A DNA stretch of 64,000 nt from a virus. Numbering within the stretch: position 1 is the stretch's first letter; every line of letters begins with the position of its first letter. The notes below the pieces were generated by a model that worked only from the letters and a program-made list of their open reading frames with translations, ran no database searches and was not told where the DNA came from. Positions 7,612-38,407 of this stretch are shown here, one piece after another. Position numbers and translations under genes: made by a program. The DNA lies in the IMG/VR virus record IMGVR_UViG_3300003322_000327, positions 38,121 through 102,120 of that record, one strand, 5' to 3'.

Positions 7612-8052
7612 TTACAGTTTCAACTTTAGGCGAAGTCGGGCCCTGACTTGCATGAGGATCGTACCGAGGTGATTCAGGCCCTGACCGTCGACTGTACCCC
7701 AGAAAGTATCACCGTGGTTGTTGCCTTCGATCAGCTCTGCGTTGCGAGTGCTGAGAAGCAGCTGCCCGATCTCAGGACCAGAAGTGAACTTCGAAAGCAC
7801 GATGTTGTGCATGAAGTGCAACTTCACGGTCTCCCAATCGGGTCGTCTCTCGATTGAGCGACCGACTCGCTTTGCCAAGTATGGAGTCACTTGCGCTCGA
7901 ACGAGTTCGCGGTCGTGCGCTGTCTTGGCCTTCATGGCCTGAAAGGCGTGCTCGCTCGTCTTCCACGTCTGGTGCCGGTACGTGAATTCGTGCGCGTAGA
8001 AGTTGGACAAGAACTCGTACTCGCCTTCGAACCTGTCGATGACGGAGGGCAT
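7612..8052 (-). CDS. NADAR (YbiA-like) family hydrolase
   Basis: FLSNFY, SEHAFQAMKA, LIEGNNHGDTFWG and NHLGTILMQVR motifs. Confidence 0.9.
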   Translation of the reverse strand: MPSVIDRFEGEYEFLSNFYAHEFTYRHQTWKTSEHAFQAMKAKTAHDRELVRAQVTPYLAKRVGRSIERRPDWETVKLHFMHNIVLSKFTSGPEIGQLLLSTRNAELIEGNNHGDTFWGTVDGQGLNHLGTILMQVRARLRLKLKL

Positions 8053-8062
8053 GATCAGTCCT

Positions 8063-9580
8063 TCAGTAGGTGGTGAGCTTGAAGCGTGGTCGAGTCGCTG
8101 CCACGTACAGAGACCGGAACGACTCGCGCTTGTTCGGGTTCGCCAGGATGTCGGCTTGGTCGACGTACACTTCGTCGAGGGTCGAGCCCTGGAGTCGGTG
8201 CGTCGTCATTGCGTAGCCGTGTCGGATGTCGGTGAACTTGTTCTTCAGCGACCAGAAGTCGGCCCACAGTTCCTTGCGTTTGCGGCTGTCCTTTTCACGC
8301 TGTGCCTTCGAAGCGCGCTTGTTCAGCATCGAACTCAGCTCACCCGGGTCTTCTGCCTTGAAGAGCGTGAGGTGCGAGTTGTGGAGGCTGTACGCCGTGG
8401 CTTCGAGCTTGCCTTCCGGGTACTCGAAGACACGCTCGTGCACTTCCTTGATCTGGAACTCTTCGTCGGTGAAGGCCAGGATCTGACCCATCGAGTCGAC
8501 CAATGGTTCAGCCAGCAGAATCATGTCGTCAGGCTCGAACCCATCCTTGATCTTGAAGCCAAGCGCCTCGCGGATGATTCGGTTGTAGACGTTGACGGTC
8601 TTGTTTCGCCAGCACGCGACCTTGGTCGTTCGCCAGTCTTCGAGACCACGGCCCCGGATCGAGTCCAGCATCTGGTCCTTGCTGACTACGAAGATGCCTT
8701 CGCGTCCGTCGTTGTCGTCAACAATCGGCGACTTGTAGACCTTGCCTTTCAAGCAGTTGCGGATCGCAACCGAGAGACCGAGCAGCTGATTGTCGAAGCG
8801 CTTGACTTCGGTCAGCAGCGCCTTGAACTCCGGCTTCGCCATGCCCCAGACCAGAGACCTGGACTCACCGACTGGGTTGAGCTGCGCTGGATCACCGACG
8901 AAGATCGCACGCCACCCGAGCTCTTCGCACAGGTTGCGCAGAATCTCCGCCAGGAACTCCGGGATCATGCCGGCTTCATCGATGACGAGCACCGGCCTGG
9001 CTCCGAGTTCGGGAGTGCGACCCGTCTGCTTCAGCACCTTCTCGCCGTCCTCGGCTACCATGCGGAGTCCGAGCAGCGAGTACGTGGTCTTGCACGTCTC
9101 ACCGACGAAATCGGACAGCACCTTGGTCGCCTTGTTGGTAGGTGCCGAGAAGTAGAAGTTGTGGCCCTTGATCTGTCGCACCTTGTCCATGAGGAACGAC
9201 TTGCCGGTGCCTGCGTAGCCCTTGATCACGCAGTACGGCTCATCGCTGGCAAGCCAACGGTTGATCATCGCCCACGCCTTGGCTTGACCCTGCGTCATCT
9301 CCTTGCCGCCAGCGAGTTCTGAACTCACAGGGACTGAGACGAACGGCAGGTCGGTGCGCCCAGGAATGGCAATAGGCGAGGCGACCGGTGTGATGCGCCT
9401 CGCCATCATGGCGTCGAGGGTCTTCGTGTTCGCGTTCGGTGGTGCGGGCTTGAACCCTTGCCTCGCATCACGCTCGTACATCAGCGCACTAAGGATAAGC
9501 TCGATGCGGCCGGTCGCGCCTTCGCGGTGTGAGTCGACCAACAAGTCGACAAGAGCCTTGGGATCTCGGAGGTCAGACAT
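8063..9580 (-). CDS. dda: Dda/RecD-like SF1B DNA helicase
   Basis: Walker A GYAGTGKS, SAPTNKA, Walker B LVIDEAGM, VGDPAQLNPV, GYAMTTHRLQGST, LYVAATRP. Confidence 0.9.
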   Translation of the reverse strand: MSDLRDPKALVDLLVDSHREGATGRIELILSALMYERDARQGFKPAPPNANTKTLDAMMARRITPVASPIAIPGRTDLPFVSVPVSSELAGGKEMTQGQAKAWAMINRWLASDEPYCVIKGYAGTGKSFLMDKVRQIKGHNFYFSAPTNKATKVLSDFVGETCKTTYSLLGLRMVAEDGEKVLKQTGRTPELGARPVLVIDEAGMIPEFLAEILRNLCEELGWRAIFVGDPAQLNPVGESRSLVWGMAKPEFKALLTEVKRFDNQLLGLSVAIRNCLKGKVYKSPIVDDNDGREGIFVVSKDQMLDSIRGRGLEDWRTTKVACWRNKTVNVYNRIIREALGFKIKDGFEPDDMILLAEPLVDSMGQILAFTDEEFQIKEVHERVFEYPEGKLEATAYSLHNSHLTLFKAEDPGELSSMLNKRASKAQREKDSRKRKELWADFWSLKNKFTDIRHGYAMTTHRLQGSTLDEVYVDQADILANPNKRESFRSLYVAATRPRFKLTTY

Positions 9581-10139
9581 TCACGTCCTCACGATACGGG
9601 TTGATGTGTACTGCTCGATGGGCCGGCACCATGAGGTAGTGCGCGAACTGGATCGGGTCGATGTCGCGACCGTGGCCGGTGAAGATGACGGGCACCTGCG
9701 GCCAACGTGCGACTACGTCTCTGGCTTTCTCGACTTGGACGTTCGTTGACTTCTGATCCAGGCCCGAGATGACGAGAAGCGTCGGCTCGGACTCTCGCTG
9801 CTTCTGATCCAGCGCGTCACGAAAGTGACCGGTGTGCTCGGCAAGCGTTGAGTCGTAGATCGGAGTCCACAGGACTTGCGCATGTCGGTCAGCTTTCAGG
9901 TGGATCTCGACCAGTCGGGCTGCGAAGTAGTTCGCCTTCAACTCCGAGTACGAGGTGACGATGAAGTGCTGACTTGCTCGACTGTTCTTGATCCAGTCGT
10001 GGATGCTCTGCGTCTGCTGATCAGCGGTCAGGCCGTTGACGTCGCGCGGCTGCCAGCTGAACTCTGCTTGGCGCCAGACGTGGCCCGGCACTTGATGCCG
10101 GACGAACTTCTGATCGACAGAGACACGGATGGTGCTCAT
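9573..10139 (-). CDS. hypothetical protein, possibly a degenerate DnaC/IstB-like loader fold
   Basis: 188-aa ORF between two helicases; PTLLVISGL...PVIFTG strand pattern, but no Walker A. Confidence 0.5.
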   Translation of the reverse strand: MSTIRVSVDQKFVRHQVPGHVWRQAEFSWQPRDVNGLTADQQTQSIHDWIKNSRASQHFIVTSYSELKANYFAARLVEIHLKADRHAQVLWTPIYDSTLAEHTGHFRDALDQKQRESEPTLLVISGLDQKSTNVQVEKARDVVARWPQVPVIFTGHGRDIDPIQFAHYLMVPAHRAVHINPYREDVNV

Positions 10140-12349
10140 TTCTTGTCCTTCTTCAATGCGGCTCGCGCCTGAAGCTCCTTCAGTTCCTTCTCCCAGCGCG
10201 CCACGTTCTCTCGACGCTTCTGACTGTCTGGTGCCTTCTTGAACGCAGACCGGGCGGCGGAGAGACGACGCCGAGCAGCTGTGAGATCAGCATCGAACGT
10301 CCTACTGTATTTACGATTTACCTCCTGTGTCCGCTGGCGCTGCTTGACCTTCGACGCTTCGGACATGACCTTGAAGTGATGCAGCACAGTCAGCGGTGGC
10401 TCGTTGACGAGCTTGAAGCCTTCGACTCCGATCTTGCGCGCCAACAAAATCGCGGACGCAACGTAGGGCACGATCATCAGCACCGGACCCTTGGCGCCTG
10501 GGTCGCGTAGATTCGTCCGGTACAAGGTCTGCACCAAGTTCTCGATCGAATGATCCTGATCGATGTCGTAGTCCGGAATCAGCAACTTGTAGAAGCGTGT
10601 CTGAGTCGGGTTCGGATTCAACGCTGCCAGATGAGTGAAGGCAATCATCGACGAATAGAGGTTGATGCCGTGCAGCGTCGGGGTGTCTGGCACCGTGAAG
10701 GTAGATGAGTCGAGTCGGTCATAGAGAACGGTCCTCAGTCGCTTGTCCCAGTGAGGTGGAACCAGGATTGCGTCGCGCCTGTGCTTGCGGTCGTAGACCG
10801 TTGACCCGGACCTTCCTGGCTTGCGAGTCAGTGAGCCGTGAGCGATCGTGAACTTGACGGTGCGCAGATAGCGCGTGCCGTTCGGATACCAGACCCGCTT
10901 GTCATTCGCGTTCAAGGCCAGTAGCGATCGATTCCCAGAGTTCGGGTAGTGGGTCTGCACCCAGGTCTCGAAGATCCGAGCGGCCGCAGAGAGCAGAGGC
11001 CAGAGCGGAGGCACCGCAAATCGCTTCAGCTGCGCTTCGAGCTCCGTGCTCTTGCACACGCTCTTGCCTTCGGGATTTGCCAGCTCGGAAATGAGCTCGT
11101 CGTGACTACGATCGAGGTCAAGCTCACCTGCTACCTCGGTAGCCAGCTTGACAGGCACAACCATACCCTTGGTCAGCAGATACGAGCTGAGGTTCTCCCA
11201 GAAGACTTGCTTCGAGCCGAAGTACTCCGACCTGAGCAGTGTCGCCACGTGAAGGCGTCGGGTTGCTGCCCTGCGCAGGCGCTCGGACCGGGCCTTAATG
11301 TTCTTCAAGGCAGGGCTCAGCTGCTGACCTTCGAGCAGCGGCACCAGGGTGTGGCCATCGCGCTTCAGAAAGTGGTACATCTGGCTGTCGGTGAAGAAGG
11401 CGCTGGTCAGGATCACGTGCTTGTAGTTGTTGAACAGCGCGGTCGGCCGCATCACAACCTGAACGCTGATCTTTTCCCCGCCCGGGTTCGCATCGTAGAG
11501 CTCGGAGATTTCCAGGTTCGACAGAATGAAAATCGAGCCGCGACCGGAACCTGAGTACTCCTTGTACATAGAGAGCAGGTCGCGCACGTCTTCGGGCAGC
11601 AGGCTTCGAGTCGAGACGCCGAACTGCTCCTTGATCTTCTCAAGCGGAGCAACCGAGCGAATGACGTACAGGTTCTGAGGTCGGTCGCCCTTCTCAAGTG
11701 GAATCGGATCGAGCTTGAAGCGCTTGCGCCATGCGGGCGACTCGGACTCTACCGCGTCGACCGTGATCGAGCGCCAAAGCTTCATCCACTGGTCGCGCGG
11801 AATCTTGAAATCGCGCGGTTGCATCACGCACTTGCGTGCCTCATCGAAGATGACGACCATGCGCTTCAGGAGCTGGTAGTCACGCTCGGTTGTGTCGAAT
11901 CGATTGACACGAACGAACGACTCGTGGGTCGTCATGATGATCTGGCCCAACTGTGCTTCAGACTCGAGATCGTGCTTGCGCCCTGCACGGTACTTCGTGT
12001 CCAGGTAGCGCTCACGGGTGATGAGCCCGAACAGGTAGTTGAGTGCAGTCGTCGGCTGATCACCGATCACCTTGTACTTGGTGCCGAGAAAAGCCTCAGC
12101 GACCCGGTTCGGTTCAGCCACGACCTGCACTCGACTCATCACTGATTTGTCGTCGAGTTTCGCGCGCACGCGCTGGTATGTCTCGTGCAACAGGTCAGCG
12201 GTGGGTGCTACGTAGACCAGAATGTAGTTCGCGTCCTGGCGCTGCAGCAACGTCACTGCCTGATTCACGAAATACTCGGTCTTGCCCGCACCCGGCATCG
12301 CATCGATGTAGCGGAACTCTCGAGTCTCGAAGTCTTTGTCGTCGTTCAT
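10136..12349 (-). CDS. SF2 helicase-related protein, candidate replication or origin-binding protein
   Basis: DAMPGAGKT (Walker A-like), VIFDEARK (Walker B-like), ILTSA, VQTLYRTNLRD (motif VI-like); start moved to ATG 12349, which has a GGAG SD. Confidence 0.65.
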   Translation of the reverse strand: MNDDKDFETREFRYIDAMPGAGKTEYFVNQAVTLLQRQDANYILVYVAPTADLLHETYQRVRAKLDDKSVMSRVQVVAEPNRVAEAFLGTKYKVIGDQPTTALNYLFGLITRERYLDTKYRAGRKHDLESEAQLGQIIMTTHESFVRVNRFDTTERDYQLLKRMVVIFDEARKCVMQPRDFKIPRDQWMKLWRSITVDAVESESPAWRKRFKLDPIPLEKGDRPQNLYVIRSVAPLEKIKEQFGVSTRSLLPEDVRDLLSMYKEYSGSGRGSIFILSNLEISELYDANPGGEKISVQVVMRPTALFNNYKHVILTSAFFTDSQMYHFLKRDGHTLVPLLEGQQLSPALKNIKARSERLRRAATRRLHVATLLRSEYFGSKQVFWENLSSYLLTKGMVVPVKLATEVAGELDLDRSHDELISELANPEGKSVCKSTELEAQLKRFAVPPLWPLLSAAARIFETWVQTHYPNSGNRSLLALNANDKRVWYPNGTRYLRTVKFTIAHGSLTRKPGRSGSTVYDRKHRRDAILVPPHWDKRLRTVLYDRLDSSTFTVPDTPTLHGINLYSSMIAFTHLAALNPNPTQTRFYKLLIPDYDIDQDHSIENLVQTLYRTNLRDPGAKGPVLMIVPYVASAILLARKIGVEGFKLVNEPPLTVLHHFKVMSEASKVKQRQRTQEVNRKYSRTFDADLTAARRRLSAARSAFKKAPDSQKRRENVARWEKELKELQARAALKKDKK

Positions 12350-12730
12350 CGTCTTCTCCGTTTCTGACCCATCTTTACAGTCTGGGAAGAAGTCTATGCC
12401 CTTCGGGCAGCTTAGACCTCTGCACGAATAGTTTGTATCTCCTTCATATCCCTTAAAGAACGAAGTAAGCACAAACTTTTGCTCCGCAATACGTGTGCGA
12501 ATGTGCTTCTGAGTGCGCGTAGCGCAATGGTTCCCGAGACCGTAGGTCGAAGGGAACTTACGAACCGGACCACGAGTTCCAGACCTCTGGTCTACGGAAG
12601 AGTGAAGTTGGAGTGGTCTGGTGCGAGCAGCTTTGATTGCCGGAAGTCTAGGTACTACTTCGATCTAGAGACGAATTCCGAAACCGTAAAGAATGGGCAT
12701 CCCCCATCCACGACCCCGAGGTCCAGTTCC
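12350..12730. promoter_or_regulatory. divergent intergenic control region (strand switch) with several short inverted repeats
   Basis: genes point away on both sides; lower GC; hairpins such as TTCCAGACC-TCT-GGTCTACGGAA and GAAGT...ACTTC. Confidence 0.5.
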
Positions 12731-13459
12731 ATGTCCGCATCTGAAGCCACTCTCATCGACGCCCTGCAAGCACACAACACCCCGGTCGACGCCAACGACT
12801 TCGACATCGAGATCAACGTCCTCGACGAGGACGGCAACGCGGTTCGACAGCTCATCGAGTTCTCGAAGACGGTCGTGAACTGGAGCTACGAACTCGCACC
12901 CGACGACGGTCCCGACTCCGACGACGAGGACGACATCTACTTCGACGACCTGACGGAAGCCGAGCCGGTGGCATCCAAGGGCAAGGTCGAAGCCCAGCCT
13001 GAGATCGTCGGCGGCCGTGTCGTCCGTCCCGGTCTGCTCCGAACCGATGACGACGAAGACGATGACCAGGACGACGATGACGAAGAGCAGGTCAGCTACG
13101 ACCCCGAGCGTCGCGAACTCGTGCTCATGCACCAGGTGACAGGTGCTGCCTTCCGCGAACTCAACAAGTACGTGTTCGAGCCGAAGGACAGGCCGGAGGT
13201 CTCGGTCGAGATCACGTACTACGCGACGGTCGAGCAAGGCGGAAAGCTGCTCAAGGCGCCGATCTTCGTCCACACCTTCTACGGCATCTTCTACGTCACC
13301 GATGACCTGTCGGGCAATCGGCTGATCGGCGGTCAACGCCAAGGCCCGCTGCTGCTGACGATGCGACTCGAGACCCTGGCTGCCAAGACCTTCGGCGATC
13401 CGGCCGACCAGCACCGCCTGGCGTCGCTGATCCAGGAAACCAGCATCGAGGAGCACTGA
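12731..13459 (+). CDS. highly acidic hypothetical protein
   Basis: ATG 12731 within ORF 12479..13459; phage-like codon usage begins here; D/E tracts. Confidence 0.7.
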   Translation: MSASEATLIDALQAHNTPVDANDFDIEINVLDEDGNAVRQLIEFSKTVVNWSYELAPDDGPDSDDEDDIYFDDLTEAEPVASKGKVEAQPEIVGGRVVRPGLLRTDDDEDDDQDDDDEEQVSYDPERRELVLMHQVTGAAFRELNKYVFEPKDRPEVSVEITYYATVEQGGKLLKAPIFVHTFYGIFYVTDDLSGNRLIGGQRQGPLLLTMRLETLAAKTFGDPADQHRLASLIQETSIEEH

Positions 13460-22788: not shown

Positions 22789-24114
22789 ATGAGAGAACTA
22801 CCAGCCCCAGGCTACTACTGGGCACCAGCTGCAATGGAGCAACTCTACAACCAGTCGCTGGTGAAGAAACCCTTCGACGGTCCCTACGAGCCCCACATGT
22901 ACCGCAAGGAGTTCGAGGGCAAGGCCGCAGGCGTCCGCATCATGGAAGGCTTCGGATCGAAGATGGCGCACTCGGCGCGCATCAAGCTCAAGGATGCCTG
23001 GCATCCCGGTCGCGAACTCCTGAAGCGCACGCACTTTGGCCTCTACAACGCCCAGGACAAGGTGATGAAGCCTTCGCACCTGGAGCAGGCCGAGGCGCTG
23101 GGCAAGCTGTGCTATCGCATTCAAGACTCGGGTGGCTTCCAGCTCTTCTCTGGCGTCCAGGACTTCATCGACCCAGTCGAGCTGGCGAAGATCCACAACG
23201 TCTTCGCAGACTCCGGAGTTGGCCTCGACTTGCCGATGAGTCTGGTCGAGGACAAGCAACTCGTGATCGCTGGCGCACGCATGATGGCTGCGAACTCCGT
23301 GGTGCTGCAGCGTGAACGCACGACCAAGTGGGCGCTGATGAACGTGAGCCACGGGCTGACCCCTCAACTCCGCGCCACGTGGCAGAAGGTGGCCCTGGCC
23401 GATCCTCTCGACAGCCTGTGCATCGCCGGCCTTCGCGGATCGATCCTCGACACCGCAGTCGGTGCCAACCCGGTTGCGATCGCAGCGCACCTGCTGGTCG
23501 GCATGCTGTACCCTGCCAAGTACAAGCACTACCACCTGTTGGGACTCAGCTCCGTCATCGGCATGAGTCTCGCGGCCCTGATTGCCAACCTGCACCAGAA
23601 GGTCGTGACCTCCGACTCGACAACGTACCTGAACGGGCAGCAGTTCAAGAACTTCATCAACGGCACGATCCCACCGAAGGAAGGCAACTACGGACGGATC
23701 AAGTGCAGCTGTCCAATCTGCAACTTCATCGAGTTCGAGTACTGGATGGATGGCTTCCCGACGCTGATGCTGCTCCACAACGCCGAGCAGATCAACAAGG
23801 GTTGCGAGACGCTGAACGGCCTCGCCAAGGTCGTGATTGCTAAGAAGCTCAAGGGCTTCGAGGCTGCCCGCTTCTTCTTCAAGGCCGGGGTCGGAATCGA
23901 CAAGCGTATGATCCAGCCACTGGGTCGTGCCTTCGACATGATCCTGAACACGAAGAAGTACAGCGAGGCATGCGCCATCGACTACTCGGTGAAGAAGGTG
24001 CAGATGGGATCACTCTTCGGCACCAAGCCCGTCACCAAGGCAGACAACTCGAGGTTCGAGGGCATCATCAAGCGGTACGAGAAGTACCACAAGCAGAAGT
24101 TCCTCAAACCGTAA
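22789..24114 (+). CDS. dpdA: TGT-fold guanine transglycosylase (DpdA-like, predicted 7-deazaguanine insertion into DNA)
   Basis: DSGGFQ signature, LDLP, HLLG, SDSTT, CSCPIC...HN zinc site; adjacent to queC/queE/folE/queD. Confidence 0.8.
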   Translation: MRELPAPGYYWAPAAMEQLYNQSLVKKPFDGPYEPHMYRKEFEGKAAGVRIMEGFGSKMAHSARIKLKDAWHPGRELLKRTHFGLYNAQDKVMKPSHLEQAEALGKLCYRIQDSGGFQLFSGVQDFIDPVELAKIHNVFADSGVGLDLPMSLVEDKQLVIAGARMMAANSVVLQRERTTKWALMNVSHGLTPQLRATWQKVALADPLDSLCIAGLRGSILDTAVGANPVAIAAHLLVGMLYPAKYKHYHLLGLSSVIGMSLAALIANLHQKVVTSDSTTYLNGQQFKNFINGTIPPKEGNYGRIKCSCPICNFIEFEYWMDGFPTLMLLHNAEQINKGCETLNGLAKVVIAKKLKGFEAARFFFKAGVGIDKRMIQPLGRAFDMILNTKKYSEACAIDYSVKKVQMGSLFGTKPVTKADNSRFEGIIKRYEKYHKQKFLKP

Positions 24115-24145
24115 ATAGAAGCATCGCACCTAAGAAGGACCAATC

Positions 24146-25090
24146 ATGAATCCCAACGTCGTACCGTTCTACAGCCATCGCAGCCGCAGGTTCGAAGACC
24201 TGTTCGTCGAGACCCAAGAGCGTCTGCTTGACCTCGCCGGTCTCGATTCCAAGAAGGACATGGCGCTACTCGTCACCGGCTCGGGCACCCTGGCCAACGA
24301 GATCGTCATGAGCTCGATGTCGCGCCGTCCCCACATCGCGACCCACGGAGAGTTCAGCACGCGGCTGCAAGAGACCGCCGACTGCTACTGGGGTGGCGAG
24401 TCGGCGGATCGTGACTACAAGTTCGGCGTCCAGTTCGAGACCGCCGAGGCGACTCTGAACTACACCGACTCGTACTTCGCAGTCGACTGCGTGTCGGCCT
24501 TTCCGTTCTATCCGCTGCCGGAGAAGGCACGGATCATGACCACGGTCAGCTCGAAGCAGCTGGGCGCCGATACGGGCCTCAGCATCATCTTCATTCGCGA
24601 CTACCGCGAACTGCTGACCCAGGGCATCATCGACGGCTCCAAGCGCTCGTACCTGAGCCTGAATCGCTACATCCAGTACGCGCTCAAGAACCAGACGCCG
24701 AACACACCGGGCATCGGACTGATCGAGAGCTTGAACGAGCGCCTGAAGGTCTTCGACCCCGAAGCCGAGCGCGAGCGCATCACCGGCTACTGGCAGCGCA
24801 TCACCGATGCCATCAAGGCCAAGAAGCTGTTTGCGACCTTCACCGGCGTCAAGCCGACTCCGGTCATCACCTTCAAGGGCATCGGCGAGCAGCTCTCCGA
24901 CCTCGGCCTGTACTCGAACTCGGGCAACCCGCAGCTCTTCCTCTGGTCGGCGACCGACGATCAAGTCGATCTCGTGGTCCAGCGCATCATGGACTACGAG
25001 ATGCCAGAAGTCAAGTCGGTGCTGGGCACCGTGGGCACCGCTGTTCCCTTCGCAGCAGGGGTCGGCCTCTCCATCGGAGAATCGAAGTGA
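24146..25090 (+). CDS. PLP-dependent class V aminotransferase-like enzyme (PhnW/serine-pyruvate transaminase fold)
   Basis: VTGSGTLANE, HGEFS, VDCVSAF, SSKQLG (PLP lysine), TPNTP. Confidence 0.8.
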   Translation: MNPNVVPFYSHRSRRFEDLFVETQERLLDLAGLDSKKDMALLVTGSGTLANEIVMSSMSRRPHIATHGEFSTRLQETADCYWGGESADRDYKFGVQFETAEATLNYTDSYFAVDCVSAFPFYPLPEKARIMTTVSSKQLGADTGLSIIFIRDYRELLTQGIIDGSKRSYLSLNRYIQYALKNQTPNTPGIGLIESLNERLKVFDPEAERERITGYWQRITDAIKAKKLFATFTGVKPTPVITFKGIGEQLSDLGLYSNSGNPQLFLWSATDDQVDLVVQRIMDYEMPEVKSVLGTVGTAVPFAAGVGLSIGESK

Positions 25091-25752
25091 GCATCCTCGC
25101 ACATCTCAGCGGCGGCTTCGACTCCGCTGCCTCGACCCTCAAGGTCGCGAACACGGGCGTCACGTTCAGGACCCTGCTCATCAATCTGGGTCAGCCATAT
25201 CTGCTGCAAGAGCGCAAGGCGGCTGAAACCTTCGCCGGCTGGCTGTCGGAGAAGTATCCGAACTACCTCGGTCATCATGAACTGAAGGTCGACATGGCGC
25301 TCTCACAACAGGGCCAGGTCAGCGCCTATATTCCGGTGCGCAACCTCGTGATCGGTGCCATGAGCGCCAACTTCGCACTCGCCACCGGATGCGACACCAT
25401 CGCGGTCGGCAACAAGACGCTCGAACTCAGGCCCGAGGACCCGTACTGCTTCAACGACTGCAGCCTCGAGTTCTACACGGAGCTGGGCAAGCTCGCGACT
25501 TTCGCGTCGCAAGGGCAGAGCGTCCAGTTCATCATGCCACTGCTCGATCTCGTTCACGACAAGTGGGTCGAGGGTGTCGAGATCAAGAAGCGAGTGCCGA
25601 TGTCGAAGCGCGAGGTCGTGCTCTATGTCCAGGAGCAAGGGTACGACGTGCGCCGGCTGTGGAGCTGCTACGAATCGTCGATCCGTCCGTGCGGCAAGTG
25701 CCATCACTGCGCCGAACTCATCAACGCTGGCGTCTGGGACCTCGTATCATGA
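25087..25752 (+). CDS. queC: 7-cyano-7-deazaguanine synthase
   Basis: SGGFDS PP-loop, IPVRN, NDCSLEF, SCY...CGKCHHC. Confidence 0.9.
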   Translation: MSILAHLSGGFDSAASTLKVANTGVTFRTLLINLGQPYLLQERKAAETFAGWLSEKYPNYLGHHELKVDMALSQQGQVSAYIPVRNLVIGAMSANFALATGCDTIAVGNKTLELRPEDPYCFNDCSLEFYTELGKLATFASQGQSVQFIMPLLDLVHDKWVEGVEIKKRVPMSKREVVLYVQEQGYDVRRLWSCYESSIRPCGKCHHCAELINAGVWDLVS

Positions 25753-26606
25753 CCATCATCCCCATCAAGCCGGATCGTGTGATCCAGAACGTCGATCGCG
25801 TCGTCACTGCGCGCGAGTTCGAAGGTCAGGACGACCTGTTCGTCACCGGCCATCCATTCCTCACGATCCAAGGTGAAGGCCCCCGTGCGGGTCAGGTCGC
25901 CTGGTTCGTTCGTCTCGCGGGCTGCAACTTCGGCGACAAGACCACATCGGACAAGAGCCCCGGCATGTGCGCCTTCTGCGACACGAGCTTCCAACTCGAC
26001 CAGGCCAACCAGATCAGTCCCGAGCGACTGCTCGACAACATCATCAAGGACCCGAGGTGGAAGCCGAACCATCTCCTGGTCGTCACTGGTGGTGAGCCGA
26101 CGCTGCAAGCACGAGCCCTGGCTCGCTTCCTAACCCTGGCGGCTGTGCCTTTCGACGACGTGCAGATCGAGACCAACGGCTCGCAGGCCGCGTTCTTCAA
26201 GCTCATCGATCATCCCGACACCAGGGACATGGTCGACAAGCTGATCGTGGTCGTGAGTCCGAAGGCAACGGAGATCACGGGCAAGTACACCCAGACTTCC
26301 AGGTCTGTGCTCTACGGCCCGCAGTCACTGACGGCACTCAAGTTCCTGCTCAGCGCCGACGATCCGTGCTACAAGGAAGTGCCGCTCTGGGGTCGTGAGC
26401 ACATGTCGAACGACAACGGTCCGGTCTACGTGTCTCCGATCGCGGTCTACAAGAAGCCGTACCAGGGCGAGATCAGCAGCGCCTGGGATCACGAACTGAT
26501 CGACGCCGAGGCCACGAGTCGCAACTACAGCTACGCAGCTGCCTACGCAATCGAGCACGGTCTCAACCTCTCGATCCAGCAGCATCTCTTCTGCACCATC
26601 CCATGA
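25749..26606 (+). CDS. queE: 7-carboxy-7-deazaguanine synthase (radical SAM)
   Basis: FLTIQGEG, FVRLAGC, CX14CX2C cluster motif, TGGEP, IETNG, VSPK; ATG at 25749. Confidence 0.9.
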   Translation: MTIIPIKPDRVIQNVDRVVTAREFEGQDDLFVTGHPFLTIQGEGPRAGQVAWFVRLAGCNFGDKTTSDKSPGMCAFCDTSFQLDQANQISPERLLDNIIKDPRWKPNHLLVVTGGEPTLQARALARFLTLAAVPFDDVQIETNGSQAAFFKLIDHPDTRDMVDKLIVVVSPKATEITGKYTQTSRSVLYGPQSLTALKFLLSADDPCYKEVPLWGREHMSNDNGPVYVSPIAVYKKPYQGEISSAWDHELIDAEATSRNYSYAAAYAIEHGLNLSIQQHLFCTIP

Positions 26607-26615
26607 AGGATCACG

Positions 26616-27290
26616 ATGAGCAAGACTGACCACCAACTCGGACTGCAGGTTCGAGATCACCTGATCGCTGCGGGCGTCGAAACTCCGATGATCCCGCTGA
26701 GTCACGCGCGTCCGCTCTACACTCCAGTCGGGCAGAAGGAGAAGATCGCGGAACACTTCGCGGCGATCATGCAGATTCTCGGCCTCGACCTCAACGACGA
26801 CAGCCTGGTCGAAACTCCGAAGCGTGTCGCCAAGATGTACGTGGACGAAATCTTCTACGGCCTCGACTACTCGAAGTTCCCGAAGTGCACGACGGTCGAG
26901 AACAAGATGCGCTACAGCGACATGGTCATGGAACGCAACGTCAGCGTCCAGTCCAACTGTGAGCATCACTTCGTCGTCATCGCCGGCAAGGCCCAGGTCG
27001 CCTACATCCCGAAGGACAAGGTACTCGGTCTCTCGAAGATCAACCGTGTCGTCGAGTTCTTCTCGAAACGGCCGCAGATCCAGGAGCGTCTGAGCGCGCA
27101 GATCTACCACGCGCTGCAGTACATCCTCGGCACCGACGACGTAGCAGTCGTCATCGAGGCCGAGCACTACTGCGTCAAGAGTCGCGGCGTCCGTGACGAA
27201 GGCTCATCGACCGTGAGCTCTCACATGGGTGGCAAGTTCATGGACCCGGCACTCAGGGCCGAGTTCATGTCATTCGTCGAACGAGCCTGA
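26616..27290 (+). CDS. folE: GTP cyclohydrolase I
   Basis: ETPKRVAKMY, NCEHH, GLSKINR, RPQIQERL, HYCVKSRGV. Confidence 0.95.
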   Translation: MSKTDHQLGLQVRDHLIAAGVETPMIPLSHARPLYTPVGQKEKIAEHFAAIMQILGLDLNDDSLVETPKRVAKMYVDEIFYGLDYSKFPKCTTVENKMRYSDMVMERNVSVQSNCEHHFVVIAGKAQVAYIPKDKVLGLSKINRVVEFFSKRPQIQERLSAQIYHALQYILGTDDVAVVIEAEHYCVKSRGVRDEGSSTVSSHMGGKFMDPALRAEFMSFVERA

Positions 27291-27324
27291 TCCAACAACC
27301 TCACCACACCACATAGGAAGCAAC

Positions 27325-28203
27325 ATGAGCACCGAACAAGTCAACGAACAGAGCCAGAACGAGCCCGTCGAAGCCGACCAAGGACTGGCGCCGCCGAAGT
27401 CGTACCCGCTTCTCAGCGCAGCCGAGCTGCAGCGCGTGCTGAGCCGCACCAGCGAGCACAGCTTCGCCTTCAACATCCAGCGCATGAACCAGATGTACAA
27501 GCTGCCGATCCTGACGGCGCCGACTCTGGAAGGTCTGACCAAGCCGAACGGCACGTCCGAGTCGGCCTCGAACCGCATCAAGGGCTTCCTCCGCACCCTG
27601 CACGACGAGGTGCTGGAAGGCAACGAGATCCTGGTCAAGCTGTGCCTCATCGAGTCGAGCCGTCTCGACACCGTGCCGGTGACGCTGGTCGAATGGGTGA
27701 AGACCATCGAAGAACGCCTCGGCATCATCCTCAGCTCCGAGTCGGCCACGAAGTGCCTCGAGTTCGCCGATCTGGTGCAGCGCGACTACGACGAAGCCGT
27801 CAAGGACGTGTTGGTCGACATCGCCGACTGGACGGGCGACATCATGGTCTACTGCCGGTCCGAGGCCATGAAGTTCGGCCTGCCCTCCGAGAACGTGCTC
27901 GAAGCCATCATGGGCTCCAACTTCACGAAGCTGCCCTCCGACGGCATCCCGGTCCACGACGCGAACGGCAAGTTCCTGAAAGACATGACCAACTTCGTGC
28001 CGCCCGAGCCGGCGATCAAGACCATGCTGTTCGGCCTCAAGCCCGAACCCACGGTCGACGCCGACGGCAACGTCAAGGCCACGGTCAGCCCGGCCACCCA
28101 GTCCTGGTTCGGCATCCCCGACTCGGACCCGACGGTCAAGATGAGCAACAACGTGTACTCTCCGGCCGAAGCCGGAACCAAGGACACGGGCTTCGTCGAC
28201 TGA
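27325..28203 (+). CDS. MazG-like all-alpha NTP pyrophosphohydrolase (PRA-PH/DR2231-like)
   Basis: DEVLE...DIADWTGDIMVY...IMGSNFTKL...NGKFLK...PP; ATG at 27325 with AGGAAG SD. Confidence 0.7.
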   Translation: MSTEQVNEQSQNEPVEADQGLAPPKSYPLLSAAELQRVLSRTSEHSFAFNIQRMNQMYKLPILTAPTLEGLTKPNGTSESASNRIKGFLRTLHDEVLEGNEILVKLCLIESSRLDTVPVTLVEWVKTIEERLGIILSSESATKCLEFADLVQRDYDEAVKDVLVDIADWTGDIMVYCRSEAMKFGLPSENVLEAIMGSNFTKLPSDGIPVHDANGKFLKDMTNFVPPEPAIKTMLFGLKPEPTVDADGNVKATVSPATQSWFGIPDSDPTVKMSNNVYSPAEAGTKDTGFVD

Positions 28204-28213
28204 GGACTGACCA

Positions 28214-28537
28214 ATGACTGCAGACCTGAAGCCCTTGGGTTGGGGCATCATCGCCAACAACGCGAAGGACAAGAAGTTGAGGTCCGGGGCCAAGGTCTGG
28301 ATCATCGGTGTCAACGGAGGTGGAGAACGCTGCCAAGTCAGAGGCCTGAATGTCCAAGGCCGCATGATCGAGAAGTACGTGGCGTTCTCCAATCTCAGCA
28401 ACTATCGACCAAGCGCGATCATGCCGACCCACACGAAGCACGAGGTGTGGCCGTTCGGTGGTCCGGATGATCGCGCTGTGGTGCAGGGCTACTGCGATTC
28501 GCTGAACAAGCGGACAGACAGTAAAGAAGAGTCGTAA
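28214..28537 (+). CDS. hypothetical protein (SH3/KOW-like beta pattern)
   Basis: 107-aa ORF, GAGGA SD. Confidence 0.65.
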   Translation: MTADLKPLGWGIIANNAKDKKLRSGAKVWIIGVNGGGERCQVRGLNVQGRMIEKYVAFSNLSNYRPSAIMPTHTKHEVWPFGGPDDRAVVQGYCDSLNKRTDSKEES

Positions 28538-28548
28538 AGGAGCAGAGC

Positions 28549-29181
28549 ATGGAATTCAAGTACAAGTCAACGAAGACCTTTCACCAGGCCTTTCCGGTCG
28601 CGTACAGGCAGTGGCGTGCGGACTCGCATTGCAACGTCGTGCATGGCTACGCGCTGTCGATCCACCTCGAGTTCGGCGCCTTCGACCTCGACGCTCGTAA
28701 CTGGGTCGTCGACTTCGGATCGCTGAAGCCCCTCAAGGCGCAGCTCGAAGACTGGTTCGATCACACGATGCTGGTCGCCGAAGACGATCCGCATCGGGAA
28801 GCGCTGCTCGCTCTCCACAAGCTGGGTGTCGCCAAGGTCACCGAAGTCGAGCGCACGGGCTGCGAAGGTCTGGCCGACTTCGTCTTCGAGCACCTCAACG
28901 ATCGTGACGCCGGCTGGCTCAAACTCTACGGCTACGGCGGTCGCGTCATCTGCACCAAGGTCGAAGTCCGTGAGACGGATGCCAACATGGCGATGCGGAC
29001 CCTGACCGTCAGCGACTGGGTCCGGTTCACGATGCCGACCGAGCAGAAGCACGTCCACCAAGGTGCTGTCGCGGCAGGCAGCACCAAACCAGTCGGCACC
29101 ATCGAAGACTTCGAGGTCGTCTGTGACAAGAACGGACTGACGGCCGATGAACGACTGGCTCAACAAGCGGAGCGAGCATGA
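28549..29181 (+). CDS. queD: 6-carboxytetrahydropterin synthase
   Basis: YRQWRADSHCNVVHGY, WVVDFG, FDHTML, CEGLA, VEVRET. Confidence 0.85.
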   Translation: MEFKYKSTKTFHQAFPVAYRQWRADSHCNVVHGYALSIHLEFGAFDLDARNWVVDFGSLKPLKAQLEDWFDHTMLVAEDDPHREALLALHKLGVAKVTEVERTGCEGLADFVFEHLNDRDAGWLKLYGYGGRVICTKVEVRETDANMAMRTLTVSDWVRFTMPTEQKHVHQGAVAAGSTKPVGTIEDFEVVCDKNGLTADERLAQQAERA

Positions 29182-29630
29182 GACCAGTACATATCCACAC
29201 CCACGTCGAGGCACCACGGACTCCGAGCCGTATCGACGTCCACGAGCATCGGGCTCCGACCGTCGAGTCGGCGAAGTTTCTGTCCGAGCTCGAAGCCGAG
29301 GCCATGAAGAAGATCGAGGCATCGATCAAGCTCGACCACTCTCTGTTCGACTGCCGTGTATTCGTCATGCGAGAGTCCGGCATCAACAACGACATCAAGT
29401 TCGTGATGTTCTATCGGCTGGGTCCGAATCCGACGCCCGGTCGTGAACTGGACTACGCGAAGATGACTCGTGTTGAACACGAGGTACAGCTCTGGAGCAA
29501 TCCGCCACTCGACCAGATCGTGGCCGGCATCATCAAGGCTCTGTCCGAGTCGATCGCCAGAACCATGCTGAGCTCGTGCGGCGAGAGCCTGCTGCGCTCG
29601 ATGCGTGAGATGGGCATGGGCTGGTCATGA
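29178..29630 (+). CDS. hypothetical phage protein
   Basis: 150-aa ORF, ATGA overlaps. Confidence 0.65.
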   Translation: MRPVHIHTHVEAPRTPSRIDVHEHRAPTVESAKFLSELEAEAMKKIEASIKLDHSLFDCRVFVMRESGINNDIKFVMFYRLGPNPTPGRELDYAKMTRVEHEVQLWSNPPLDQIVAGIIKALSESIARTMLSSCGESLLRSMREMGMGWS

Positions 29631-37807: not shown

Positions 37808-38407
37808 ATGGAACTCAAAGCTGCACAGAGGCTTCAAGCCTCGACATTCATGCCCGATCGACTGGTCATGATCGACTGCGAGATGACCGGCCTCGATCCG
37901 AAGGCCGATGACCTGATCCAGATCGCGGCCATCAAGCTGGAGCTGCAGGGCGATCAGTACATCGAGACCGGACCGGATCTCAACTTCTTCATCCACACCG
38001 ACAAGCAGCCTGCGTCCGAGTTCGCGCGCAAGTACATGAGCGACGTCTACAAGCAAGCAAACGAGTCGACCGTCGACTACGTGCAAGCGAAGGCAATCCT
38101 CGACTCGTGGCTCGGAGACTGGAAGGGCGAGGTCAGCCCATGCGGCGACTGCGTGCCCACCGACGTGCTCTTCATGTACATGAAGGGCGTCATCGGTCTC
38201 TCCAGGTACGAGGGCGATACTCCAGTCAAGGGCACCTTCCACTACGAGTACTTCGATATGAACGCCATCAAGGCGCTGGCCCGTCAGAAGAAGGGCTACA
38301 AGTTCGACAAGGAACTCGAGCGCCTACCTGGTGATCACGATGCGCTGGTCGACTGCCGCAACCAGCTCGTGGAAATGAACGCCATCATCAAGGTCCTGCT
38401 CTCATGA
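37808..38407 (+). CDS. DEDDh 3'-5' exonuclease (oligoribonuclease/DnaQ-like) with N-terminal ELKAAQRLQAS tag
   Basis: MIDCEMTGLDP..DDLIQIAA, VPTD, HDALVDC. Confidence 0.85.
   Translation: MELKAAQRLQASTFMPDRLVMIDCEMTGLDPKADDLIQIAAIKLELQGDQYIETGPDLNFFIHTDKQPASEFARKYMSDVYKQANESTVDYVQAKAILDSWLGDWKGEVSPCGDCVPTDVLFMYMKGVIGLSRYEGDTPVKGTFHYEYFDMNAIKALARQKKGYKFDKELERLPGDHDALVDCRNQLVEMNAIIKVLLS

Follow-up and report, generated by a model that had tools for sequence, protein, structure and literature searches.

We analyzed a window of 64,000 nucleotides of viral DNA (positions 38,121 to 102,120 of the 109.6-kb IMG/VR virus record IMGVR_UViG_3300003322_000327, which has an estimated completeness of ~46%) in which positions 22789–29630 are occupied by a single, co-oriented and densely packed operon on the + strand. 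The bearer of the operon is an uncultured root-associated jumbo phage. The G+C content of the window is ~60%, and a search of sequencing runs found its DNA again in root metagenomes of one study; the runs recovered in that search were DNA runs only, and none was an RNA sequencing run. A preliminary description of this DNA had proposed that eight co-oriented genes, from dpdA-like to queD, form a cluster of the 7-deazaguanine DNA-modification type, and this was borne out: all eight lie on the + strand (Table 1), and the cluster type was supported by matches of FolE, QueD, QueE and a QueC-family protein in Pfam, PHROG and NCBIfam, together with the TGT fold of the DpdA-like protein. Inserted between the DpdA-like gene and the gene of the QueC-family protein is a gene for a small class-V aminotransferase-like enzyme dependent on pyridoxal phosphate (PLP), the stop codon of which overlaps the start codon of its downstream neighbor in a GTGA that was verified in the sequence. 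The downstream protein is not an ordinary QueC and we refer to it, and to the subfamily to which it belongs, as QueC*.

The pairing of the two genes is strict. Relatives of the PLP enzyme at 31–71% identity are encoded immediately upstream of a QueC gene, usually with an overlap of 4 nt, and the PLP–QueC* pair was found inside FolE/QueD/QueE operons of unrelated backbones, T4-like and jumbo phages included. A search of IMG/VR with a QueC* profile recovered 15 loci, and at all 15 a PLP-family gene was adjacent, mostly with overlapping stop and start codons. Four further long contigs from other assemblies were chosen purely by their QueC* homology, and each of the four had the pair with a 4-nt overlap and a DpdA-like gene upstream, the PLP genes being identified by a hidden Markov model of the family at E<=4e-92. 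Among the 19 loci recovered (15 from IMG/VR and four from other assemblies) there was no QueC* without a PLP gene, so that the check on co-occurrence of PLP homologues with queC and dpdA that had been proposed in the preliminary description gave adjacency to the PLP gene at 19/19 QueC* loci. Because the operon as a whole also recurs on other contigs at 71–96% protein identity, and the pair recurs in many unrelated phage lineages, the arrangement is not a matter of chance, and we consider it very probable that the PLP gene and QueC* constitute one functional module. The pair is described in no publication that we found and may make a new modified base.

Table 1. Genes of the operon in the window (positions are those of the 64,000-nt window).
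Feature	Coordinates	Strand	Identification
DpdA-like guanine transglycosylase (TGT superfamily), 441 aa, P0001	22789..24114	+	motifs, family profile, AlphaFold2 (AF2)/Foldseek
Small class-V (SerC/PhnW/AGT-like) PLP-dependent aminotransferase-like enzyme, 314 aa, P0002	24146..25090	+	NCBIfam, PDB, AF2
QueC* (divergent QueC-family PP-loop ATPase), 221 aa, P0166	25087..25752	+	Pfam QueC 72.9 bits
QueE-like radical SAM 7-carboxy-7-deazaguanine synthase, 285 aa, P0190	25749..26606	+	PHROG QueE-like 1.4e-28
FolE (GTP cyclohydrolase I), 224 aa	26616..27290	+	Pfam GTP_cyclohydroI 205.8 bits, E 4.6e-61; PHROG 7e-72
MazG-like nucleotide pyrophosphohydrolase-related protein, ~292 aa	27325..28203	+	PHROG 671 1.8e-11
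107-aa protein P0004	28214..28537	+	homologue at same position in L002–L004, E 5e-58
QueD-like 6-carboxytetrahydropterin synthase (PTPS fold), 210 aa	28549..29181	+	Pfam PTPS 57.3 bits; PHROG QueD-like 2.9e-38
150-aa protein overlapping the QueD stop codon	29178..29630	+	PHROG 37058 (unknown function) 7e-8

Some loci with the pair provide further detail on its surroundings. When positions 22789–25752 of the window were compared with contig L002 (L002:8647–11553), its closest relative, the DpdA-like proteins were 96% identical, the QueC* proteins ~77–82% and the PLP enzymes 71%; the module is either evolving much faster than its neighbor or has been exchanged by recombination. In two T4-like contigs (L130:5747–6175 and L133:5779–6180) a gene for a small HAD-superfamily NT5C-like phosphatase, which has a DxDGV motif and scores above the Pfam cut-off, is located between the DpdA-like and PLP genes.

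The preliminary description had given the name queC to the gene that follows the PLP gene, but its product departs from canonical QueC and, judged by its sequence, is a member of the QueC* subfamily. Its identity to the QueC of a sister phage, L037 (see below), is 23%, versus 32–82% to the QueCs that are paired with a PLP enzyme, the PLP-paired QueC of a T4-like phage being 50% identical to it; among deposited phages, the best QueC matches to QueC* were only 25–30% identical. The signature of canonical QueC comprises SGGxDS, YxQxHxxE, VPxRN, YPDC and C(x)8CxxCxxC, and in the E. coli enzyme the substitutions Y35A, R99A, Y131A and Y189A were inactivating and Y131F left partial activity (Libby et al. 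2026, PMC13329287). The window QueC* retains the PP-loop (LSGGFDS), the IPVRN motif, in which P83, R85 and N86 are invariant across QueC*, and the zinc site (C194-Y195...C202-x2-C205-x2-C208), with a spacing of 7 in place of the canonical 8. The YxQxHxxE motif is replaced by L-G-Q-P-Y-L-L-Q-E, that is, Y35 is Leu, H39 is Tyr and one residue is added; Y35 is retained in the other QueC* members, nearly all of which have Tyr for the motif His. In place of YPDC the window protein has FNDC (Y131 to Phe), and the motif across QueC* is [FWY]xD[CS]. The window protein thus lacks two signature residues found to be essential in the published experiments (PMC13329287). In addition, QueC* has a conserved insertion, GSKTxxxRPxDPY, adjoining the substrate-pocket motif, which in the window is represented by a 5-residue insertion, GNKTLELR. 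A QueC* profile scored Cap9 at 73.7 bits and QueC at 74.3 bits.

The 441-aa DpdA-like protein was not matched by any Pfam, PHROG or NCBIfam model, and across the 16 records carrying the PLP–QueC pair the Pfam TGT model was above its cut-off in none, the DpdA-like proteins going undetected. Relatives were found in metagenomes at 23–96% identity, and in the family alignment D113 (in DSGGFQ), D276 (in TSDSTT) and C306, C308, C311 and H330 (CxCxxC...H) were invariant in 17 relatives; we take these to be the catalytic aspartates and the zinc site, by analogy to the TGT of Zymomonas mobilis. The family profile matched the archaeosine TGT (PDB 1iq8) at 5e-5, the top Foldseek matches to the AF2 model (pLDDT, the model confidence score, of 88) were all TGT or arcTGT proteins (E ~2e-8, TM ~0.5), and tblastn showed 24–28% identity to "TGT domain" proteins of jumbo phages. 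By sequence and structural model the protein is a DpdA-like member of the TGT superfamily, and that it acts on DNA we infer from the operon context and the phage setting. The nearest DpdA-like gene in a cultured phage is that of the jumbo phage vB_PpuM-Peetri, which has no queuosine genes in the annotated region nearby. Candidates for DpdA that were picked by size and position in other QueC* lineages were rejected, as they proved to be terminases, sliding clamps, a polymerase or unknowns instead.

Three sister phages, L037, L038 and L039, allowed us to see what occupies the corresponding slot when the PLP gene is absent. Their DpdA proteins are 57–78% identical to that of the window, they have no PLP gene, and they retain the gene order polymerase, primase, small gene, DpdA ... 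QueE, FolE, QueD. In the slot of L037 (L037:11345–16962), a 92-aa gene is accompanied by genes for a QueC of canonical appearance and for an AsnB-like glutamine amidotransferase, an R2K ATP-grasp protein being encoded further on; that of L038 (L038:11651–14221) has a degenerate QueC-like gene and genes for 185-aa and 405-aa unknowns; and in L039 (L039:11380–12241) the slot holds nothing more than a PP-loop remnant of 167 aa and a YdjM-like gene. It is the DpdA of L037 that is 78% identical to the window protein, yet the QueCs of these two phages are those that share 23% identity. The PLP–QueC* module, then, takes the place of canonical QueC within conserved synteny. The contents of the slot between DpdA and QueE differ among the sister phages, so that this lineage appears to have a variable cassette for the step that follows 7-carboxy-7-deazaguanine (CDG), as would be expected were diversifying selection acting on the 7-substituent. 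A separate feature of L037 is that its QueE homologue (L037:13507–15429) is a 640-aa open reading frame (ORF) with a NUMOD3 match, which suggests that it carries an inserted homing endonuclease or an intein.

The PLP protein on its own (P0002) had no Pfam or PHROG match, and its NCBIfam match to PhnW-AepZ (6e-10) was at 39 bits versus a cut-off of 360.8; its single-sequence matches in PDB (3f0h and 3ffr) were also weak. The profile of its family, however, matched class-V aminotransferases in PDB down to 3e-23, and with the AF2 model of P0002 (pLDDT 91.9) the top 50 Foldseek matches were all SerC, 2-aminoethylphosphonate (AEP) transaminase or AGT-type proteins (E down to 1e-16, TM ~0.7). A structure search of BFVD with the PLP enzyme returned generic fold-type-I PLP proteins only. 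The family comprises 315 clusters (50% identity) at E<=1e-3 and at least 156 at E<=1e-10, nearly all of its members being 265–315 aa long. In 67 relatives H11, R12, G47, E52, T99, D114, S117, K137, T187 and Y256 are invariant, the G45-S46-G47-T48 loop is invariant or nearly so, and Q263 is also conserved. By alignment to known enzymes we take K137 to be the Schiff-base lysine, D114 the aspartate to the pyridine nitrogen and GSGT the phosphate loop. The same 67 relatives have no conserved cysteine and no conserved arginine after position 73; the position missing at the C-terminal end is presumably that of the arginine that binds the alpha-carboxylate in SerC and AGT. Fold, profile and invariant PLP-site residues therefore agree with the class-V aminotransferase-like assignment made in the preliminary description, and the 314-aa protein is a truncated class-V PLP enzyme that is probably active. 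Two other relationships were considered and rejected. The PLP decarboxylases of thymidine hypermodification have a different PLP fold, the structure prediction for ViI gp226 having matched tryptophan synthase beta (PMC8989533), and a role in sulfur transfer like that of the NifS-type cysteine desulfurases was set aside given the lack of a conserved cysteine and the transaminase identity of the structural neighbors. In one QueC* locus (L118:4916–6004) the partner is a longer class-V aminotransferase of 362 aa that scores above the Pfam Aminotran_5 threshold and may be a less reduced relative of the miniature enzyme.

The PLP family is almost entirely viral. In cellular genomes a search with a 15-sequence alignment found only distant, full-length class-V relatives, as partial matches at 23–30% identity, and when 50,697 deposited phage genomes were searched by tblastn with three members, one of the three had a weak partial match and the other two had none. 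The absence of the family from deposited phages in that search accounts for its absence from the literature, which is built on GenBank phages: in agreement with the earlier view that the enzyme lies outside the described pathways, it was not mentioned in the literature that we found on phage 7-deazaguanine DNA-modification pathways.

The PLP family is not confined to deazaguanine clusters. Half of the IMG/VR records that contain a family member (15/30) have no QueC, and QueD was also absent from 15 of the 18 records checked. In the records without QueC, one or two genes for RimK-like ATP-grasp ligases adjoin the PLP gene, and these clusters also hold genes for glycosyltransferases, an MptE-like protein, a methyltransferase and PIG-L-type deacetylases. 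Examples, all from phages that lack deazaguanine genes and with nucleotide-sugar transferase genes in the cluster as well, are a complete genome in which the cluster directly follows the tail-tip J gene (L024:5379–13104) and three contigs (L015, L016 and L018, around 8000–13000); clusters of this type may serve virion or glycan decoration using an amidated carboxylate. One PLP member adjoins a nucleotidyltransferase (NTP-transferase), and a bacterial member is fused to an HAD phosphatase and located in a Wzm/Wzt glycan cluster. When PLP proteins adjacent to QueC* (n=14) were compared with those adjacent to an ATP-grasp ligase (n=7), all positions with a conservation of 85% or more in each of the two groups had the same residue in both, that is, no specificity-determining difference between the two groups was found at such positions, and members of the two groups interleave on the tree. 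Read most simply, these sequences indicate that the enzyme catalyzes one and the same reaction, on a common metabolite, in either genomic context. The presence of the family next to ATP-grasp ligases in phages lacking deazaguanine genes makes it unlikely that deazaguanine itself is the substrate of the PLP enzyme.

In view of these results, the reading that we favor, with a rough probability of 0.4, is that the PLP enzyme makes an amine, that QueC* ligates this amine to adenylated CDG, and that the resulting N-substituted 7-carboxamido-7-deazaguanine is installed in DNA by the DpdA-like enzyme. The substrates, the ligation chemistry, the order of the steps and the target in DNA would then be as follows. 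FolE, QueD and QueE would make CDG from GTP. The PLP enzyme would transaminate an ordinary carbonyl metabolite to an amine, leaving the deazaguanine untouched, and its substrate would probably be phosphorylated or otherwise anionic and be held by the invariant SerC-like His-Arg pair. QueC* would adenylate the 7-carboxylate of CDG, like QueC, and would couple the activated carboxylate to the amine made by the PLP enzyme rather than to free ammonia. Finally, the DpdA-like enzyme would exchange guanine in the phage DNA for the N-substituted base; in an alternative order, ligation would occur not on the free base and instead on DNA-bound CDG. The logic is that a transaminase beside a ligase most simply supplies an amine, because ATP-grasp enzymes and QueC-type PP-loop enzymes both couple an activated carboxylate to nitrogen. 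An anionic amine would fit with features of both partners, namely the SerC-like His-Arg pair, the lack of a conserved C-terminal arginine and the bacterial HAD fusion for the PLP enzyme, and the Lys/Arg-bearing insertion and the HAD-family NT5C-like gene in two contigs for QueC*. The more specific proposal that QueC* is a nucleobase–amine ligase (using, for example, the amine of a phospho-amino-alcohol) that gives rise, via the DpdA-like enzyme, to a previously unknown DNA base is tentative, and on balance we doubt it. The preliminary description had left it open whether the PLP enzyme tailors the 7-substituent or supplies a substrate, and of these two, supply of a substrate fits the evidence better and direct tailoring is disfavored.

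Several observations weigh against the amine-ligation scheme. The phage members of the PLP family all come from uncultured phages, and the proposed chemistry is a prediction from sequences and models. Only in some lineages was a DpdA-like gene recognized beside the PLP–QueC* pair. QueC* retains the greater part of the QueC core (the PP-loop, xPxRN, the zinc site and Y195) and could still make 7-cyano-7-deazaguanine (preQ0) from ammonia. A sister phage whose DpdA shares 78% identity with that of the window probably puts a small base into its DNA, and a bulky substituent fits poorly with so similar an enzyme, unless ligation takes place on DNA-bound CDG. The phosphatase that neighbors the pair belongs to the nucleotidase type and was seen in just two lineages, and its role could instead lie in nucleotide metabolism. 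Lastly, the deep branches of the PLP tree are poorly supported, and the argument for the same function in both genomic contexts therefore comes mainly from the shared conserved residues.

Alternatively, the PLP enzyme might be a nitrogen donor, for instance by beta-elimination from phosphoserine or serine, that enables QueC* to amidate CDG when ammonia is scarce, in which case the DNA would contain an ordinary base, as the deoxynucleoside of preQ0 (dPreQ0) or of 7-amido-7-deazaguanine (dADG). The enzyme would then be analogous to the glutaminase domain of Gat-QueC or to AsnB, PP-loop ATPases commonly having a dedicated nitrogen-donor partner, and it is in keeping with such a role that the sister phage L037 has an AsnB-like glutamine amidotransferase beside QueC in the same slot, that the PLP and QueC* genes are translationally coupled in most lineages and that most of the catalytic core is kept in QueC*. 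We nevertheless consider it unlikely, given that the nearest folds are those of true transaminases (SerC, PhnW and AGT) and not of lyases, and that in some phages, L121 and L011, the two genes are separated by kilobases or lie on opposite strands. We also know of no PLP-dependent ammonia-channelling subunit. The PLP family, furthermore, pairs with RimK-like ATP-grasp ligases as well, and these normally use amines, not ammonia.

It is less likely again that QueC* is simply a fast-evolving, ordinary preQ0 synthase and that the PLP gene is a passenger, carried as an auxiliary metabolic gene that serves the metabolism of serine, phosphonates or amino acids. The occurrence of the PLP family in several different contexts would agree with such a passenger, as would the finding that phage QueCs are generally divergent (PMC6884629). 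However, hitch-hiking hardly explains an adjacency that holds at 19/19 loci in lineages of 32–50% identity, usually with 4-nt overlaps and with no QueC* recovered in the absence of the PLP gene, and the changes in the QueC* signature are conserved throughout the subfamily, unlike random drift.

We regard as improbable the possibility, raised in the preliminary description, that the PLP enzyme acts directly on the 7-substituent, either by interconverting 7-formyl- and 7-aminomethyl-7-deazaguanine in a QueF-independent route of the preQ1 type (preQ1 being 7-aminomethyl-7-deazaguanine) or by decarboxylation. A point that can be counted both for and against it is that no QueF was found by profile search in the 16 records that carry the pair. 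Weak QueF matches in 8 of the 16 were discarded, being T-fold cross-hits inside FolE genes. For the phage studied here the earlier statement that QueF is not recognizable in the window also held for the 109.6-kb record, in which (at ~46% completeness) there was no QueF, no Asn_synthase or Gat-type amidotransferase and no second QueC, although no search was aimed at ArcS or DpdL/M/N. Direct tailoring would also agree with the ability of class-V enzymes such as PhnW to use amines without an alpha-carboxylate, with a weak NCBIfam match of the PLP protein to pyridoxamine-pyruvate transaminase and with the lack of a conserved C-terminal arginine in the family. Nevertheless, the PLP family occurs with identical conserved residues, beside ATP-grasp ligases, in phages without any deazaguanine genes, and no reductase is conserved with the PLP–QueC* pair. 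The canonical intermediates are also unsuitable as substrates, for to our knowledge neither 6-carboxytetrahydropterin (CPH4) nor CDG, 7-amido-7-deazaguanine (ADG) or preQ0 offers a free carbonyl or a primary amine. Finally, it is very improbable that QueC* works like Cap9 and QatC in joining CDG to an amine of a protein, the TGT-like protein being a binder and counter-defence a possible function, for although the QueC* profile scores Cap9 as highly as QueC and type IV CBASS (cyclic oligonucleotide-based antiphage signaling system) also pairs a QueC-like with a TGT-like protein, the catalytic aspartates and zinc site of the TGT-like protein are intact, the operon is laid out among replication genes like phage DNA-modification clusters, and the PLP enzyme would be left without a role.

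The other genes of the operon (Table 1) were assigned as follows. The stop codon of QueC* and the start codon of QueE overlap in an ATGA at 25749, and the ATG there is the true start of QueE, the start at 25389 of a longer listed ORF being rejected as an over-extension. The QueE translation carries the Cx14CxxC radical-SAM motif, and its match to TIGR04508 (queE_Cx14CxxC, 1.8e-17) is under the cut-off of that model. From the sequence, the likely start of the MazG-like gene is the ATG at 27325; the match to PHROG 671 ("nucleotide pyrophosphohydrolase") covers residues 189–262 of the long ORF 27229–28203, and no Pfam match was obtained. This gene sits between FolE and QueD within the deazaguanine operon, a weak MazG-like gene is also located after QueC* in an unrelated T4-like contig (L130:7660–8343), and dGTP clearance and nucleotide processing are both possibilities for its function. 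The 107-aa protein P0004 had no family match in Pfam, PHROG or NCBIfam, and homologues of the 150-aa protein follow QueD in L002 (2e-67) and in L037 (9e-19).

Genes of other kinds were seen near the module in individual contigs. A T4-like deazaguanine cluster includes a phosphoribosyltransferase (Pribosyltran) gene (L006:6774–7259), which could function in the salvage of guanine released by DpdA or in the synthesis of deazaguanine nucleotides. Family A DNA polymerases with an N-terminal uracil-DNA-glycosylase-superfamily domain adjoin PLP–QueC* modules in two contigs (L123:1529–4054 and L005:944–4009), and the polymerase of L005 also has an intein. In one further contig a Cas12f1-like TNB (TnpB-type) gene (L132:8731–9921) lies ~1 kb downstream of the pair.

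Bases of the 7-deazaguanine type shield the DNA of phages against Cas9 and restriction enzymes. Eight such derivatives are known from nature, and with every addition new enzymology and a further layer of the phage–host arms race came to light. The PLP–QueC* pair is a widespread module, so far seen in metagenomes only, at the step that sets the 7-substituent. If the amine-ligation scheme is true, its product would represent a ninth class of natural deazaguanine DNA base and a small-molecule counterpart of protein deazaguanylation. A new product would also mean a new activity on the QueC scaffold, the ligation of a small amine, and a new role for a miniature class-V PLP enzyme. These would have practical relevance to restriction-resistant DNA and to the detection of modified phage genomes. 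Even with ordinary preQ0 as its product, the module would represent a first example of a route to this base that involves PLP.

The operon has much in common with the known phage deazaguanine clusters, which consist of DpdA with FolE, QueD, QueE and QueC and, optionally, QueF, ArcS, Gat-QueC or DpdL/M/N (Hutinet 2019, PMC6884629; Cui 2023, PMC10516641). As in those clusters, a TGT-family transglycosylase is encoded beside a full pathway from GTP to CDG and a QueC-family enzyme, among replication genes. It differs from them in having a PLP enzyme and QueC* instead of canonical QueC, there being no PLP enzyme in either of those reports (PMC6884629, PMC10516641), and in that its DpdA-like protein matches no Pfam TGT model. 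With the Gat-QueC and AsnB partners (those of the dG+, or deoxyarchaeosine, route of phage 9g and of L037, where AsnB occupies the same slot) it shares the coupling of a nitrogen-handling enzyme to a QueC-family PP-loop ATPase. Unlike those partners, the one in the window is a fold-type-I PLP enzyme and not a glutaminase. It is made as a polypeptide of its own, from a gene that precedes QueC* in most lineages, and among the matches listed there was no PLP–QueC fusion.

The PLP family resembles SerC, PhnW and AGT in its fold, Schiff-base lysine, pyridine aspartate, GSGT loop, and SerC-like N-terminal His-Arg and NTP motif, and the member that adjoins an NTP-transferase recalls the PntC-AEPT fusions. 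It is distinguished from those enzymes (~350–390 aa) by being 50–90 residues shorter, under the Pfam threshold and almost wholly viral. A parallel for the proposed chemistry can be drawn with the capsule of Campylobacter jejuni, in which Cj1437 transaminates dihydroxyacetone phosphate to serinol phosphate, Cj1438C ligates this amine to the carboxylate of glucuronate with ATP and the HAD phosphatase Cj1435 removes the phosphate (PMC12096443). The PLP family likewise flanks ATP-grasp ligases, is fused to an HAD protein once and has an HAD neighbor at two QueC* loci. The parallel is one of analogy, and two elements differ: the carboxylate in our case would belong to a nucleobase, and its ligation would fall to a PP-loop ATPase instead of an ATP-grasp enzyme. 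With respect to QueC*, the closest comparison is with Cap9 of type IV CBASS and QatC of QatABCD, QueC-family proteins that ligate the carboxylate of deazaguanine to a protein amine (10.1101/2025.04.06.647259, PMC13329287). QueC* would have in common with these a QueC scaffold on which the 7-carboxylate may be joined to amines besides ammonia, and its profile scores Cap9 about as well as QueC. Cap9 and QatC, however, are bacterial defence proteins that modify a protein N-terminus, whereas QueC* is encoded by phages together with a full biosynthetic pathway and its presumed acceptor is a small amine.

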